A model generated the notes under the pieces. It was not told the DNA's origin, made no database searches, and saw nothing but the letters and a program-made list of their open reading frames with translations. Positions 47,789 to 53,688 of a stretch of DNA of 64,000 nt are shown piece after piece. The stretch lies in assembly GCF_008326305.1 (NCBI RefSeq), contig NZ_BIXY01000010.1, forward strand, positions 51,137 to 115,136. Reading direction: 5' to 3'. A program made the translations under genes and the position numbers. The stretch's first letter is position 1. Each line of letters begins with the position of its first letter. The stretch is from Dictyobacter arantiisoli (GTDB lineage: Bacteria; Chloroflexota; Ktedonobacteria; Ktedonobacterales; Ktedonobacteraceae).

Positions 47789-50380
47789 TTACTTACCAAG
47801 CCAGGTAATCTCGACAGAGGATGCATCGTAGCCTTTGACTTGAATAATCTGAGGATCATTCGGTAAGACATCGAGCATATTGTCGCTCCAGGTGAGATTG
47901 CCCGGCGCGTTCAGCCAGACACCTTTGGCAGGACGCTTGGCGGTCACGCTGATACTGTTCTCATCAATCTGTTCGATCTCGATTTCAGGATCAGGGAGGG
48001 ACAGATATTTGAATGGTTCGGGCCAGAGGGTTGCGCGAGCAACGATGGCTTTGTCTTTGAGGAGACGAGCCTGCATCACCCAGTTTTCGCCCTGAGGACG
48101 GGATAAGGTTGCCAGTTCGCTCGCCTGATTGGGCGGTAACACGATAGTCTGGCTCTGCTCATCCAACAATTCACCGGCGAGATTCCAGGTACGTAGCTCA
48201 AGTTCGAACTGGACTTCGCGCTGCTCTCCATTGACGGCCCAGGCATGCACCGGTTCAGACTCGTGTTGTGCCAATCCAACTGCATAGCGAGCCAGTTCAC
48301 GTTTGATTGTGTAATAAGCTGGCTTGGGCCGCAAATAATAGTCCACAACGGCCCAACTGGTAACTGGCCAGCAGTCATTGAGCTGCCAGACAAGTGCTCC
48401 GGCTGTATATTCACGTCCAGGTCCCTGCCAGCGTCTGCGCCAACCACGGATCGCCGATCCCAGCGCCTCGGATTGAATAAACTGAGTATTATAGATGTAG
48501 CCTGGTAGATCGGCGGCCACACGAACATTATCGACGATATACGGGGCCAGACGGCGTGGACCACCGGCATCCTTGTTATGGAAGTCAAGCGTACGGCTCT
48601 GTGGATACCATTCAGACTCGGGCGCAAACTCCTTGATGGTTTCCATGACCGGGAAGGCTTCCATACCAAACTCGCTGACAAAACGGCCCGCCAGCTTATA
48701 ATAATCCTGATAGGCCACGCCACCATGCCAGACAGTCCAGACGTGAGTATCGCCCACGGTAGTATCATCCACTTTTGACCCCTGAGGATGGTTGGGACCA
48801 TGACCAAAGGGACTGCCAGGCCAGTAGGGACGAGTAGGATCAAGCTGCGCACATACCTGCGGCAGAATCTGCTCATAAATGACGCGCGCTGGAAACGCTG
48901 TCTCCTCAAAATTCTCTGTCACAGTAGGATCATATTTCGGCCCGGCGATAGCATAGTCCTCGTTATTGCCACACCAGAGTACAATGCTGGGATGATGACG
49001 CAACAACCGAACGTTCGCCTCCGCTTCAGTGCGTACACTCTGCTTGAACCAGTCGACAGCGGGATATATCCCACAGCCAAACAGAAAGTCTTGCCAGATT
49101 AAAATGCCCATTTCATCGCAGAGCTCATAGAAAGTAGCATCCTCAAAGATACCTCCTCCCCAGACACGCAACATGGTCATATTGCCATCCACCGCCAGTT
49201 GCAACCATTGACGATAGCGGGCGCGATCAATGCTCGTCGTGAACGAATCGGCAGGAATCCAGTTCGCACCACCACAGAAGATGGGGGTATTATTGATCTC
49301 AAAATAGAAACTACTGCCTGGCTCATCCTGCAAGGCATGCTGGATCAATCCCAGACGGCGCAAGCCCAGAACCAGAGAATGCTGATCCAGTACGCCCTGC
49401 GCGTCTCTCACGATCGTCTCAAGGCGATAAAGGGGCTGCTCGCCGTAGCCATGCGGCCACCATAATTCAACCTGCTCAAGTGTGAGCTGCACGTCGGTTC
49501 TCTCACTCTGGACGGGAACCGTTTGCTCAGCCACTAGCACACCGGCTGGATTATAGAGTGCGACAGAAAGTTCCGCCGCTGTGCTACGCTCACCGTTCTC
49601 AATCTGTACGTGGATCGGCAACAGCGCGCTGGATAAGTCCTCAGCTACCTCGTAGGGACAATGCACATCAGCGATACGTACCTCATATGCCTCTAAGTGG
49701 ATAGCTCGCCAGGGACCCGCTGTCATAAAGATCGGCCCCCAATCCCAACCATAGTGATATTGTGCCTTGCGCACATAGAGGCGGCTGGAATCGCCATTCC
49801 AGAGAGGAAGCTTGCCGCCATTCTGCTCCTCAAGCTCCTTACCACGTAGTAAGGCCGACTCAAATAAGATATGTAATTCGTTGTTCCCCTCCTGGAGCAA
49901 AGCTTTTACATCCAGGCGATAGGGAACAAACATATTATCGCTCTGCAAGATCTGGGTATCATTCAACCAGACAGTAGCATAGGTATCCAGGCCATCAAAG
50001 CATAACTGAAGTGCGCCATGCGCAAGATCCTCAGCCGTCAATGAGAAAGTAGTGCGATAGAGCCAATCACATTCGCCAATCCATTGCAGCTGTGTTTCAT
50101 TCAATCCCTCAAAAGGGGCCGGAATCTTACCAGCCGCCAATAAATCTAGCTGCACAACGCCAGGAACGCTTGCCGCAATCCATGTGTCTGCAGAGACAAA
50201 ATCATCGTTTAAAGCAATTTCAGCGTTCCGTTGCTTTAATTGCCAGCCAGCCGAAAGGTCTCGATAATTCACAGAATACACATTCCTTTCAAAGAAAGCA
50301 GTAAAAAGCGCTTGCTTTTGTACAGCATACCAGCCTGAAAGTGCTTCGACAACCATAAATTCTTTCAACCTGCCTTTCAT
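47789..50380 (-). CDS. Glycoside hydrolase family 2 beta-mannosidase
   Basis: 863 aa with GH2 sugar-binding, immunoglobulin-like and TIM-barrel regions (WWPHGYGEQPLY, NEDYA..., catalytic-Glu context). Confidence 0.8.
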   Translation of the reverse strand: MKGRLKEFMVVEALSGWYAVQKQALFTAFFERNVYSVNYRDLSAGWQLKQRNAEIALNDDFVSADTWIAASVPGVVQLDLLAAGKIPAPFEGLNETQLQWIGECDWLYRTTFSLTAEDLAHGALQLCFDGLDTYATVWLNDTQILQSDNMFVPYRLDVKALLQEGNNELHILFESALLRGKELEEQNGGKLPLWNGDSSRLYVRKAQYHYGWDWGPIFMTAGPWRAIHLEAYEVRIADVHCPYEVAEDLSSALLPIHVQIENGERSTAAELSVALYNPAGVLVAEQTVPVQSERTDVQLTLEQVELWWPHGYGEQPLYRLETIVRDAQGVLDQHSLVLGLRRLGLIQHALQDEPGSSFYFEINNTPIFCGGANWIPADSFTTSIDRARYRQWLQLAVDGNMTMLRVWGGGIFEDATFYELCDEMGILIWQDFLFGCGIYPAVDWFKQSVRTEAEANVRLLRHHPSIVLWCGNNEDYAIAGPKYDPTVTENFEETAFPARVIYEQILPQVCAQLDPTRPYWPGSPFGHGPNHPQGSKVDDTTVGDTHVWTVWHGGVAYQDYYKLAGRFVSEFGMEAFPVMETIKEFAPESEWYPQSRTLDFHNKDAGGPRRLAPYIVDNVRVAADLPGYIYNTQFIQSEALGSAIRGWRRRWQGPGREYTAGALVWQLNDCWPVTSWAVVDYYLRPKPAYYTIKRELARYAVGLAQHESEPVHAWAVNGEQREVQFELELRTWNLAGELLDEQSQTIVLPPNQASELATLSRPQGENWVMQARLLKDKAIVARATLWPEPFKYLSLPDPEIEIEQIDENSISVTAKRPAKGVWLNAPGNLTWSDNMLDVLPNDPQIIQVKGYDASSVEITWLGK

Positions 50381-50563
50381 TTTACAATTTCTCCACAGGC
50401 AAAAACCAGCGATACGTAACAGGCATATTCCCAGATAGGAATAATACTATAGAGAATGGGCAGGAGTGACGGTAGTCATAAGAAGATAATACAAAGGGAA
50501 CATCATAATACATCTTCAGGAAGTGTGGAAGCTGAAAAATACCACAAGAAAAAAAATTACCTC

Positions 50564-50593
50564 TTGACAGATGGATCAATGGGTACGTATAAT
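50564..50593 (+). promoter_or_regulatory. Near-consensus sigma70 promoter TTGACA-18-TATAAT with an upstream A-tract, driving the aroF leader
   Basis: ttgaca at 50564-50569, tataat at 50588-50593, 18-nt spacer, preceded by aagaaaaaaaatt. Confidence 0.7.
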
Positions 50594-50657
50594 CATGATA
50601 AGGATCTGAGCCAACGAGATAACGTGTTCGATCCAAAAAAGAAAAGTGGACAAACTT

Positions 50658-50723
50658 ATGCTTAGCCTGCATATCAAATTCGTACAATCGAGTTTTTATT
50701 ATTGGTTTAGCCCTCCAGCATGA
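50658..50723 (+). CDS. Attenuator leader peptide MLSLHIKFVQSSFYYWFSPPA with 5 consecutive aromatic codons (ttt tat tat tgg ttt)
   Basis: 21 codons plus stop. Located 60 nt after the predicted transcription start and followed by alternative hairpins and a terminator. Confidence 0.7.
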   Translation: MLSLHIKFVQSSFYYWFSPPA

Positions 50724-50772
50724 TGGTGGGCCCTTTGGGCTGAGCAAAAACAAACCACCAGCATGCTGGGCG

Positions 50773-50800
50773 AGCAGAGGAATATATCCTCTGCTTTTTT
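50773..50800 (+). terminator. Attenuator terminator (intrinsic) about 60 nt upstream of the aroF start
   Basis: agcagagg aatatat cctctgct followed by tttttt. Confidence 0.75.
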
Positions 50801-50860
50801 GTTTCTCAAATTCCGCCCCGGCTTGAATTATTTAGTGTTTGGAACTGAAAGGATTGCACC

Positions 50861-51925
50861 ATGATTATTACCATTCAGAATGAAGCGAGCAGTGATGAAC
50901 GAGCGCAGTTAATGGCCCTTTTATGTCGTATCACCGGGAGCCAGCACCCGATAACGTCAACGCAGATGGGTGAACGTGAGGTTATCGCCCTGGACTCAGC
51001 ATCGCTTGATGCTCAGGCACACACCGCCCTCTCCGCTCAGCCCGCCGTCGCCACCCTCCACTCTCCCAAGACCAGTTATCAATTAGCAAGTCGCCTCTTC
51101 CAAACACACAACACCACCATCACCATCGGTGAAACCCATGCCTGTAATCCTGTTACCATAGGTGGAGAGCAATCCATGCCAGTCGTGATGGCCGGGCCAT
51201 GTGCGGTCGAGAGCCGTGAGCAACTCATTACAACCGCACAAGCGGTCAAACGAGCAGGAGCACGTGTTTTACGTGGTGGTGCATTCAAGCCGCGTACATC
51301 ACCCTATCAGTTCCAGGGGTTGGGCATCGAAGGTCTGCATATGCTCGCCGAAGCACGAGAAGTAACTGGCCTACCAGTGATTACCGAGGTAATGGAGCCT
51401 GGAATGGTTGAAACGGTAGCGCAATATGCCGATGTCCTGCAAATCGGCACACGTAATGCTCAGAATTTCCCACTTTTATTGGCGGCTGGACGCAATAGTA
51501 AAAAGCTGCCAGTACTCCTTAAACGAGGATTCTCCTCTACTCTGGATGAGTGGTTGCTAGCAGCGGAATACATCCTGGCGGCAGGCAATCCCAATGTCAT
51601 TCTCTGTGAACGTGGTATTCGTAGCTACGATCCACAGACACGCAACGTTCTTGATCTTACCTGCATCCCATTGCTTCATCAATTAACCCACTTGCCAATT
51701 GTCGTCGATCCCAGTCATTCCACAGGTCGCCGCGAACTAGTTCCCATCATGTCACGTGCCGCTATCGCCGCCGAAGCCCAGGGATTAATCATCGAAGCCC
51801 ATCCAGATCCAGATAAAGCGCTCTGCGATAGCAAGCAATCTATTACGCCAACACAACTGGAAAAAATCATTCAGGAAACACATATGATCGCCCGTATGCT
51901 GCGGGGCGAGGCCTATGTAGCATAG
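50861..51925 (+). CDS. aroF: 3-deoxy-7-phosphoheptulonate (DAHP) synthase, type I-beta, with an N-terminal ferredoxin-like regulatory domain
   Basis: [44 protein letters not shown] and the C-terminal KDO8P/DAHPS-family core. RBS GAAAGGA. Confidence 0.8.
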
Positions 51926-52066
51926 ATTAGGAGGGATAGAGCAGACCACCCGCGGTGTCATATTCACTATCGACGCTTGATCCAGAGTTATGATATACTC
52001 TTTGTACGTAGAAAGAGTATTTTAGAAGATGGGTGGGAATAGACCAAAGGCTTTGAGGAGACACTA

Positions 52067-52639
52067 ATGCCAACACGAATTATTATTGCCGATGACGAAG
52101 CCATTCAGCGCATGGATCTGAAGGATGTGCTTACAAAACAAGGCTATCTCGTTATTGGAGAAGCAGGGGATGGACAGAGTGCGGTCAATCTGGCTCGTGA
52201 ATTACGACCAGACCTGATCATCATGGACATCCGTATGCCTGATATGGACGGCATCGCTGCCGCCGAAACGCTTACCCAGGAAAAAATTGCACCAGTGTTG
52301 TTGCTCACGGCCTTCGGTGACCAACAGTTGGTCGAGCGTGCTAAAGAGGCAGGGGTTGTTAACTATATTGTGAAACCTCTGCGCGAGAGTGAAGTCGCCC
52401 CGGCGATTGAAGTCACGCTGGCCCGCTATAGCGAATATCGTGCGATTGAAGATGAGAACCGCACTCTGACCGAGAAATTGGAGACACGTAAGGTTGTCGA
52501 GCGCGCCAAGGGACTGTTGATGGAAAAAAACGGTCTTTCGGAGCAGGAGGCCTTCCGTAAGATCCAAAAAGCGAGCATGAATAATCGCAAATCGATGCGC
52601 GAAGTAGCTGAGGCTATTTTACTTACCAATGAGATGTAG
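52067..52639 (+). CDS. Response regulator with a receiver domain plus an ANTAR RNA-binding output domain (PdtaR/AmiR-like)
   Basis: Receiver region ADDEAIQRMDL...IIMDIRMPDMDG, and the ANTAR motif VVERAKGLLMEKNGLSEQEAFRKIQKASMNNRKSMREVAEAIL. Confidence 0.8.
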   Translation: MPTRIIIADDEAIQRMDLKDVLTKQGYLVIGEAGDGQSAVNLARELRPDLIIMDIRMPDMDGIAAAETLTQEKIAPVLLLTAFGDQQLVERAKEAGVVNYIVKPLRESEVAPAIEVTLARYSEYRAIEDENRTLTEKLETRKVVERAKGLLMEKNGLSEQEAFRKIQKASMNNRKSMREVAEAILLTNEM

Positions 52640-52704: not shown

Positions 52705-53688
52705 ATGTCACTGGCAATGCAAACCGAAAAAACAGTTGCTGTGGTTGGTATTCGCTTTCGTCCTACGGGCCGTATTTACTACTTTGATCCCGTAGAACAG
52801 GTCTTTTCGAATGGCCAGTACGTCATTGTAGAAACAGTTCGTGGTGTAGAGGCTGGTCGTGTAGTGATTGCCTCAAAGAAACTGGCAGAAGGCGACCTGA
52901 GCGATCCCTTGAAACCAATTCTACATCTGGCGACAGAAGACGAACTGCGGATGATGCTTTCCTTTAAGAGTAAAGAAAAAGAAGCATTGGTTCGCTGCCA
53001 CGAGCGTGTGATGTATCACAAGCTTCCCATGAAGCTTGTTGAGGCTGAATATACGTTCGATGGGAGCCGCCTGACCTTTTACTTTACTGCGGACGAACGT
53101 GTAGATTTTCGGATCCTGGTCCGTGACCTGGCCTCTACGTTCCGTACGCGTATTGAGTTGCGCCAGATTGGTGCACGCGATCAAGCCAAATTGCAAGGCG
53201 GTGTAGGTCCTTGCGGCAAAACCCTCTGTTGTAGTTCTTGGATCACTGACTTTGGAATCGTCTCGATCAAAATGGCAAAAGAACAGGGGCTCCCTCTGAA
53301 TCCCTCCAAAATCTCGGGTGTCTGCGGACGCTTGATGTGCTGTCTCTCGTATGAAAATGACAACTACATTCAGGCCAAACAGCAGATGCCACAAATCGGG
53401 ACCTTTCTAGATACCCCCAGTGGTCGTGGCAAGGTTGTCTCAATCAATGTGCCACAAAATTCCGTTGAAGTCATGCTTGAGAGTGGCGTCACAATTCACA
53501 CCCCGGTTGAAAGTCAACCCGTGAAAGCGGGCGGCTGTAGCGCCAAAGGTGGAAGTTGTGGCTGTAGCGCCAAAGGTGGCGGCTGTGGAAGCGGTGGCTG
53601 TGGCTCCAAAGGTGGCGGCTGTGGAAGCGGTGGCTGTAGTACCAAAGGTGGCGGCGGCTGCGGATCATGTAGTCTGAACAGGAAATAG
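52705..53688 (+). CDS. PSP1 C-terminal domain protein (RicT/YaaT-like) with a Cys/Gly-rich tandem-repeat tail
   Basis: PSP1 core with conserved Cys clusters CGKTLCCSSW and CGRLMCCLSY. The C-terminus is GGCSAKGGSCGCSAKGGGCGSGGCGSKGGGCGSGGC, encoded by DNA tandem repeats at about 53521-53670. Confidence 0.7.
   Translation: MSLAMQTEKTVAVVGIRFRPTGRIYYFDPVEQVFSNGQYVIVETVRGVEAGRVVIASKKLAEGDLSDPLKPILHLATEDELRMMLSFKSKEKEALVRCHERVMYHKLPMKLVEAEYTFDGSRLTFYFTADERVDFRILVRDLASTFRTRIELRQIGARDQAKLQGGVGPCGKTLCCSSWITDFGIVSIKMAKEQGLPLNPSKISGVCGRLMCCLSYENDNYIQAKQQMPQIGTFLDTPSGRGKVVSINVPQNSVEVMLESGVTIHTPVESQPVKAGGCSAKGGSCGCSAKGGGCGSGGCGSKGGGCGSGGCSTKGGGGCGSCSLNRK

Follow-up and report, generated by a model that had tools for sequence, protein, structure and literature searches.

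Leader-peptide attenuation of aromatic amino acid genes is textbook knowledge for pheL and trpL, and in trpL the region of the leader that binds the ribosome also pairs with a distal segment. TnaC, another leader peptide, governs the Rho-dependent termination of a catabolic operon and depends on particular conserved residues. Most work on leader-peptide attenuation concerns Proteobacteria and Actinobacteria, and to our knowledge gene regulation in the Chloroflexota is almost unstudied. Here we analysed a leader element on the forward strand (positions 50564-50860) of a stretch of 64,000 nucleotides (nt) from Dictyobacter arantiisoli (contig NZ_BIXY01000010.1), the whole of which is called the window; the element lies upstream of a gene for 3-deoxy-D-arabino-heptulosonate 7-phosphate (DAHP) synthase. 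Comparison with related loci led us to conclude that it is very probably a leader-peptide attenuator that senses aromatic codons.

Among the described systems, aroR-aroF of Corynebacterium glutamicum comes closest: a Phe-Tyr-Phe leader controls DAHP synthase, as shown experimentally (Neshat et al. 2014, in the summary given by PMC11802643), and according to that summary read-through rises on ribosome stalling under phenylalanine limitation (PMC11802643). Putative attenuators ahead of aromatic operons have been listed for many bacteria (PMC1173090), and in Deinococcus deserti leaderless leader peptides of ~10 codons were predicted in 14 cases upstream of amino-acid biosynthesis and tRNA-synthetase genes (PMC4007540).

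The window element resembles aroR-aroF in having a short leader peptide with an aromatic run ahead of a DAHP synthase gene and in the principle of sensing; the two differ, compared by description, in phylum and in the class of the DAHP synthase. In addition, the run of the window holds all three aromatic residues, a second, overlapping mini open reading frame (ORF2) is present, and an anti-terminator is not recognisable. Like E. coli pheL-pheA and trpL-trpE, the element has regulatory codons in an upstream ORF, a stop codon within or beside one strand of a helix, a terminator and a presumed coupling of ribosome position to folding, but it shows no overlap between 2:3 and 3:4 helices, and here a long helix abuts the terminator instead. 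No description of an aromatic leader-peptide attenuator in Chloroflexota was found in the searchable literature, the attenuator survey of Lopatovskaya 2010 being outside its scope. The original prediction, made from the letters of the window without database searches, had known of no such case in Chloroflexota-like genomes; that much stands, although control of DAHP synthase by an aromatic leader is in itself known in C. glutamicum, going by the summary of it (PMC11802643).

Aromatic leaders upstream of DAHP synthase genes

Upstream regions were read in 80 loci (given L numbers here) coding for relatives of the window's DAHP synthase, and a second set of 120 loci was obtained by scanning metagenome contigs with the exact terminator sequence. 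The leader, a long helix formed by two segments (the 1:2 helix) and the terminator are found upstream of DAHP synthase in 13 of 13 Ktedonobacterales loci, and nearly all of the 120 metagenome loci combine such a leader with a DAHP synthase gene downstream. Overall we collected 117 distinct leaders upstream of aromatic-pathway genes, all with an aromatic run; at least 80 of these came from the exact-terminator query, and 34 loci came via the protein. The original prediction had proposed conservation among orthologues as its test, and the leader is indeed conserved, with a 1:2 helix that covaries. Its core, the control of DAHP synthase by a leader peptide and a terminator, appears strongly supported by this conservation, as far as sequence comparison can speak.

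The promoter TTGACA-18-TATAAT is present as predicted; it scores 12 of 12, is the top promoter-like site within 49800-52200, and served to place the probable transcription start, which gives the window leader a 5' untranslated region (UTR) of ~57 nt. The Ktedonobacterales orthologues have a TTGACA...TATAAT pair in a comparable position, and the Limnocylindria-type loci have TTGACA. The predicted 21-codon leader ORF (ORF1) with F-Y-Y-W-F is likewise there in the sequence (Table 1).

In Ktedonobacterales ORF1 has 20-35 codons and ends in ...SFYYWFSPPA-UGA, with FWYWF, FYFYYWF and WYYYYF as variants of the run; L001-L012 and many metagenome loci keep the SFYYWFSPPA tail, whereas the N-terminal part is free to vary. 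A compact form was found in ~20 high-G+C loci from Limnocylindria and other Chloroflexota, where ORF1 has 11 codons, M-x-x-[FY]F[YW][FY]-x-x-P-A-UGA, with TTGACA upstream, and is accompanied by the helix CCCGGCAUGA/UCGUGCCGGG, the inner hairpin and the identical terminator stem. Taking all leaders together, the peptide is 11-43 codons long, and the run stays aromatic through changes of codon (FYYWF, FWYWF, YWYWF, WYYYYF, FYF, YWF, FWY). Because these substitutions alter the nucleotides and keep the aromatic residues, selection seems to act on the codon class and not on the RNA sequence.

Some further features of the leaders were observed. The final Phe codon of the run (50706-50708 in the window) is UUU nearly everywhere, even in high-G+C genomes that use UUC and UAC before it, and may be a deliberately rare codon or reflect a constraint at the RNA level. 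In L014-L038 the leader AUG lies ~10-13 nt past the -10 hexamer, implying that translation of the 11-codon leader would begin on a nearly leaderless transcript. These Limnocylindria-type leaders, starting near the 5' end of the transcript, resemble in this respect the leaderless peptides of D. deserti, unlike the window leader with its longer 5' UTR. A leader of Chloroflexota type (MNAPYWFTPPA) with the same helix and terminator was seen in L017, a metagenome-assembled genome labelled Candidatus Polarisedimenticolia (Acidobacteriota), which suggests horizontal transfer or a binning error.

The same scaffold precedes genes for prephenate dehydrogenase (L108, L131, L145), for an AroH-type chorismate mutase, CM_1 (L100), and for a second kind of DAHP synthase, of the DAHP_synth_1 type (L096). 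We count this placement ahead of several aromatic-pathway genes as the logic of a regulon, and as such it supports the attenuator reading. The tyrA-type leaders, for example one ending ...FAWYFYFSPPA-UGA, have a local hairpin around the stop.

The regulated gene is a full-length member of the type I-beta DAHP synthase subfamily, N-terminal extension included: the protein matches Pfam DAHP_synth_1 at E = 2e-75, and its residues 1-348 match positions 1-334 of 338 in NCBIfam PRK08673 with 414 bits (cutoff 335). Its nearest relative is from Dictyobacter kobayashii (82% protein identity), and the best-scoring solved relatives include 1vs1 and the Thermotoga maritima-type 1rzm. The N-terminal allosteric domain of the original prediction holds insofar as an extension is present in the full-length match; a Pfam search with residues 1-100 gave nothing credible, so that the PRK08673 match is what supports this part, and its allosteric role is our assumption, drawn from the Thermotoga enzyme. 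DAHP synthase copies that are more distant (47-55% identity) and lack an aromatic leader were seen in Ktedonobacterales (L048, L050) and in other Chloroflexota (L039, L066), and may be a second, differently regulated paralogue.

The long helix, ORF2 and the terminator

At minimum energy, 50600-50860 folds into precisely the 1:2 helix, which holds a small inner hairpin, plus the terminator; the fold has -80.4 kcal/mol against -64.3 +/- 4.9 for shuffled sequences (z = -3.3). Folding of this region, which the original prediction had proposed for defining mutually exclusive structures, gave these two structures and no anti-terminator. The core of segment 1, ccagcatgatggtgg, is complementary to that of segment 2, ccaccagcatgctgg (50755-50769), at 14 of 15 positions, and both the pairing and the place of segment 2 are as predicted; the core of segment 1 lies at 50715-50729, not at 50714-50728.

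The helix is maintained by compensatory change. In the Ktedonobacterales alignment five of its pairs are changed on both sides, and the covariation score was reached by none of 500 shuffles and is also above all slid controls; the closing pair of the mini hairpin inside it covaries as well (CG 8, UA 3, AU 1). Between the two classes the helix goes from A-U to G-C by compensation (CCAGCAUG/CAUGCUGG to CCGGCAUG/CGUGCCGG), and in leaders with an extended ORF (L094, L096, L110, L135) a helix of wholly different sequence occupies the same place. In 115 of 116 minimum-energy folds the gap between the helix and the terminator stem is 0-4 nt. A further pairing, mutually exclusive with the 1:2 helix, connects the start-codon region of ORF1 to a downstream partner: it reads UGCUCAGC/GCUGAGCA in most Ktedonobacterales, is retained via G-U in the window and L012, and shows a double compensatory change in L005 (UGCACAGC/GCUGUGCA).

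ORF2, which the original prediction missed, begins at the AUG of GC-AUG-A, where it overlaps the ORF1 stop, and runs for 5-7 codons to a stop that lies in the loop of the inner hairpin in Limnocylindria-type leaders and in GCUGAGC in Ktedonobacterales. A stop in its frame ahead of the terminator is present in 93 of 100 distinct GCAUGA sequences (UGA 58, UAG 30, UAA 5), against 21 and 16 of 100 in the other two frames. This bias of frame suggests that ORF2 is translated. In 14 leaders with no AUGA, ORF1 itself extends to a stop at the equivalent place, and in both architectures, AUGA and extended ORF1, the final stop precedes GCAGAGG by 26-37 nt (mode 33). In L047 and L059, a third lineage that was read by eye, an overlapping ORF starts inside UAUGGC and ends with UAG or UAA in a hairpin loop, 35 nt before a different terminator. 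A third ORF of the window (50763-50864), which starts at an AUG in segment 2, crosses the terminator and stops at the AUGA of the DAHP synthase gene, is unconserved in frame and end point and was treated as chance; frameshifting was also rejected, the frame open through the terminator being present in the window and unconserved elsewhere.

The intrinsic terminator was found where predicted, by scan and by fold. The stem GCAGAGG (50774-50780)/CCUCUGC (50788-50794) encloses a 7-nt loop and is followed by six U residues at 50795-50800, so that the predicted structure is a G+C-rich stem of 7-10 base pairs (bp) and then U6GUUU; the scan calls a 10-pair stem. The hairpin sequence occurs once in the window and in none of 100 shuffles. 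The stem is identical in the 34 protein-found loci, the only ones in which its invariance is free of bias because most leaders were fetched by the exact terminator, whereas the loop differs in sequence and in length (3 to at least 9 nt). Eight of nine stem pairs are invariant in each of two classes, and GCAGAGG/CCUCUGC with UUUUUUGUUU is the same in Ktedonobacterales of ~50% G+C and in Limnocylindria-type genomes of ~70% G+C (L001-L038, L064). No third partner for the invariant stem was found. That the hairpin is a palindromic DNA operator was considered and rejected, because the length of the spacer varies.

Table 1. Positions of the leader element, the regulated gene and the divergent neighbour in the window
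Feature	Position	Strand	Details
GH2 glycosidase gene	47789-50380	-	divergent neighbour, bounds the intergenic region
Sigma-70-type promoter	50564-50593	+	TTGACA 50564-50569, 18-nt spacer, TATAAT 50588-50593
5' UTR	50600-50657	+	predicted hairpin 50602-50634; weak purine-rich Shine-Dalgarno before the leader AUG
Leader ORF1	50658-50723	+	21 codons, MLSLHIKFVQSSFYYWFSPPA; UGA stop at 50721-50723
Start-codon region UGCUUAGC	50659-50666	+	complementary to 50739-50746
Regulatory codons UUU UAU UAU UGG UUU	50694-50708	+	F-Y-Y-W-F, five consecutive aromatic codons
Segment 1, 5' strand of the long helix	50714-50729	+	pairs with 50755-50770; includes the leader stop codon
ORF2 (putative)	50720-50743	+	7 codons, MMVGPLG, UGA stop; AUG overlaps the ORF1 stop as AUGA
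Mini hairpin inside the long helix	50730-50740	+	GCCC-UUU-GGGC, from the fold
Partner of the start-codon region, GCUGAGCA	50739-50746	+	includes the ORF2 stop
Segment 2, 3' strand of the long helix	50755-50770	+	ends 1-3 nt from the terminator stem
Intrinsic terminator (predicted)	50772-50804	+	GA-GCAGAGG, loop AAUAUAU, CCUCUGC-UU, then UUUUUUGUUU
DAHP synthase gene	50861-51925	+	type I-beta with N-terminal extension; Pfam DAHP_synth_1, NCBIfam PRK08673

Ribosome position and the proposed control of termination

Four ribosome positions were modelled, three on aromatic codons (first, middle and last) and one at the stop, with the covered bases kept unpaired, and the leaders were refolded with and without the 3' arm of the terminator. 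The modelled 1:2 helix was intact when the first or middle aromatic codon was occupied and gone when the ribosome was at the stop; as segment 1 includes the leader stop, a ribosome terminating there removes the helix. The terminator hairpin was in the minimum-energy fold at every modelled position in 114 of the 117 leaders, and the constrained folds of the 117 contained no conserved partner for either of its arms. In positive controls, aromatic-rich leaders from other phyla (L025, L041, L045, L052, L070), constrained folds gave a conventional anti-terminator when the aromatic codons were occupied and the terminator when the ribosome stood at the stop. Candidate anti-terminators were dropped as short, class-specific or covered by the ribosome: in leaders of Limnocylindria type, the aromatic codons CUUCUACUUU with GAAGCAGAGG; in Ktedonobacterales, UUUAGC or CCUC with a terminator arm; the 5' arm of the mini hairpin with a terminator arm; and GCUGAGC imitating the terminator's 5' arm. 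Searches for known RNA elements gave nothing either: between 50300 and 51000 no relevant Rfam family, T-box included, matched at E <= 10, nor did the covariance models Phe_leader, Trp_leader, His_leader, Leu_leader, Thr_leader and leu/phe-leader, and the whole window had no Rfam match at gathering level. TRAP-like regulation was rejected, the (G/U)AG repeats being too few.

The explanation that we favour is a ribosome-dependent attenuator that makes transcription of the DAHP synthase gene depend on how much charged Phe, Tyr and Trp tRNA is available, and we put its probability as a whole at roughly 60%. When aromatic aminoacyl-tRNAs are plentiful, the ribosome would complete ORF1, re-initiate at AUGA and translate ORF2 to its stop, 33 nt before the terminator stem, where it would separate segment 1 behind it from segment 2 ahead of it while the terminator is being transcribed, and transcription would end. 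A ribosome stalled on the aromatic codons would have its front edge at a place that leaves most of segment 1 free, so the 1:2 helix and the mini hairpin would form against the terminator stem and the polymerase would read into the gene. In Ktedonobacterales RNA that is not translated, the start-codon region would pair with GCUGAGCA and exclude the 1:2 helix, leaving segment 2 free and leading again to termination. Because three independent features thus link an unpaired segment 2 to sufficiency or to the lack of translation, and the 1:2 helix to stalling, we propose the helix as the read-through conformation, an assignment for which we regard the odds as about even.

Several points weigh against this explanation. 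The 1:2 helix shares no stem nucleotide with the terminator, and since the terminator persists in the modelled states, the step from a formed 1:2 helix to the lack of termination is without a demonstrated physical basis. Three possibilities for such a basis can be considered: a rigid helix without linker sterically excludes the base of the terminator hairpin from the RNA exit channel; the stem extension between the purine tract and the U tract (GGAGAA with UUUUUU in the window) is lost; or the 1:2 helix extends weakly into the 5' arm of the terminator. A purely steric model is weakened by the ~5 unpaired nt that lie between helix and terminator stem in the largest Limnocylindria subgroup. The Shine-Dalgarno of ORF1, called acceptable in the original prediction, turned out to be only a weak purine-rich stretch. 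Six of the 94 AUGA leaders have no ORF2 stop ahead of the terminator, and the tyrA-type leaders have no AUGA and a stop 59-61 nt upstream of the terminator. The bias of sampling by the exact terminator, given above with the stem, belongs here as well.

The most familiar alternative is the classic four-segment attenuator, in which 1:2 is the pause or anti-antiterminator helix, a ribosome at the stop masks segment 2 and a stalled ribosome masks segment 1, so that a 2:3 helix forms and transcription reads through. The general layout is that of trpL and pheL, with a leader stop overlapping segment 1, and some constrained folds contain a 4-bp UGCU/AGCA pairing of segment 2 with a terminator arm. 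However, 4 bp is also the best that segment 2 can reach with that arm, and its conservation is no better than chance; the terminator persists under stall constraints in nearly all leaders, although the same pipeline detects anti-terminators in the five control loci. A ribosome on most of the aromatic codons would moreover leave segment 1 uncovered, and the conserved ORF2, or the extended ORF1, which carries the ribosome past segment 1, would have no role. The claim of the original prediction that every element of a classic attenuator is visible finds no support at this point, as 117 constrained folds hold no conserved 2:3 anti-terminator. Given the lack of a strand-sharing 2:3 anti-terminator and ribosome positions that misfit the trp scheme, we consider the four-segment scheme unlikely: the element functions like a leader-peptide attenuator yet is outside that type. 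A specific version of the favoured explanation, which we hold only tentatively, is that the element represents a family of attenuators without a strand-sharing anti-terminator, in which a relay of two ORFs or one extended ORF parks the unstalled ribosome ~33 nt before the terminator and so keeps the two helix strands apart, the helix that forms on stalling lies flush against the terminator stem and blocks termination sterically or by acting on the polymerase in the manner of a phage put RNA, and the invariant stem is part of the recognition.

The peptide itself might be the sensor, as in TnaC: an aromatic-x-x-Pro-Ala peptide would sense free aromatic amino acids and arrest the ribosome at UGA, masking segment 1 and favouring termination. 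The direction of regulation would be sensible, and as in TnaC there is a conserved aromatic residue at a fixed spacing from a C-terminal Pro-x-UGA-like end; Pro-Ala-UGA hardly varies, nor does the spacing of four codons between the last aromatic residue and the stop, the ORF1 stop is always UGA in AUGA-type leaders, and the A of UGA is conserved in Ktedonobacterales though mispaired in the helix (pair 36:81). Yet CCR-GCA-UGA is at the same time a helix strand, and in L011 and L013 a G-to-A change in it (Ala to Thr) is compensated in segment 2 while the peptide tail and the stop are lost (...SPPT-W/S...). Unlike that of TnaC, the tail shows covariation at the RNA level, and some lineages do without it: the C-terminal tail of 14 leaders is long and different, the two residues past the aromatic run vary freely, and DAHP synthase leaders of other phyla have only the aromatic run in common. 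With ORF2 again given no role, we judge a TnaC-like arrest improbable. We think it equally improbable that the leader mainly binds a protein, a tRNA or a ligand, or acts in trans as a small RNA like rnTrpL, with the hairpin as recognition site and the ORF secondary. A stem that is identical across two G+C classes while its loop varies is what such a reading would expect and an ordinary terminator should not be so constrained, and trans-acting attenuator RNAs are known (PMC7968998); but no Rfam family turned up even at E = 10, the length of the loop varies, the aromatic run is conserved as a class of amino acid or codon and not as nucleotides, and a function in trans would add to attenuation in cis, not substitute for it. 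A protein- or RNA-binding role of the invariant hairpin as an added layer is possible. Least probable of all is a non-regulatory arrangement in which a constitutive partial terminator follows a small conserved gene. It agrees with the terminator forming in all modelled states, but the peptide is conserved in the aromatic run only, the element is specifically linked to four different aromatic-pathway genes, and the covarying helix and the geometry of ORF2 would be left without explanation.

Related loci and meaning

In the window the DAHP synthase gene is followed 3' by a gene for a response regulator with an ANTAR RNA-binding output domain (52067-52639) and by one for a PSP1-domain protein (52705-53688) whose C-terminal tail is Gly/Cys-rich and repetitive (GGCGSGGC...).

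Genes of the same DAHP synthase family are preceded in other phyla by unrelated aromatic-rich leader ORFs. Such ORFs with terminators were seen in Bryobacterales/Acidobacteriota (L025, L040, L055, L058, L063, L069-L071, L075), Calditrichota (L041), Phycisphaerae (L042, L052, L073), a deltaproteobacterium (L045) and Rokubacteria (L054), which suggests that aromatic leader control of DAHP synthase is widespread. Several of these leaders, whose sequences are unrelated, showed a conventional anti-terminator in constrained folds, whereas the Chloroflexota-type element has no recognisable one.

One locus of the metagenome set carries different codons. L114 (Ga0187809_10014143) has the identical terminator stem and a short ORF with ACU-ACU-ACC (Thr-Thr-Thr) whose stop is also 33 nt before GCAGAGG, upstream of a gene for aspartate-semialdehyde dehydrogenase, and may represent a Thr-type attenuator that uses this module.

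If the element were merely an ordinary attenuator with an overlooked anti-terminator, it would still be a well-supported new case of a known class. If the favoured explanation is true, the repertoire of attenuators would be wider, with an anti-terminator that abuts the terminator and does not overlap it, and with termination-reinitiation at AUGA to position the ribosome; such positioning would bear on the tightness of transcription-translation coupling in these bacteria. For annotation the element would also be a signature that is easy to recognise, and it would serve as a compact part for controlling expression in response to aromatic amino acids. For the organisms themselves it would mean that an aromatic regulon, comprising DAHP synthase, prephenate dehydrogenase and chorismate mutase, is built on one RNA scaffold in Ktedonobacteria and Limnocylindria-type lineages.

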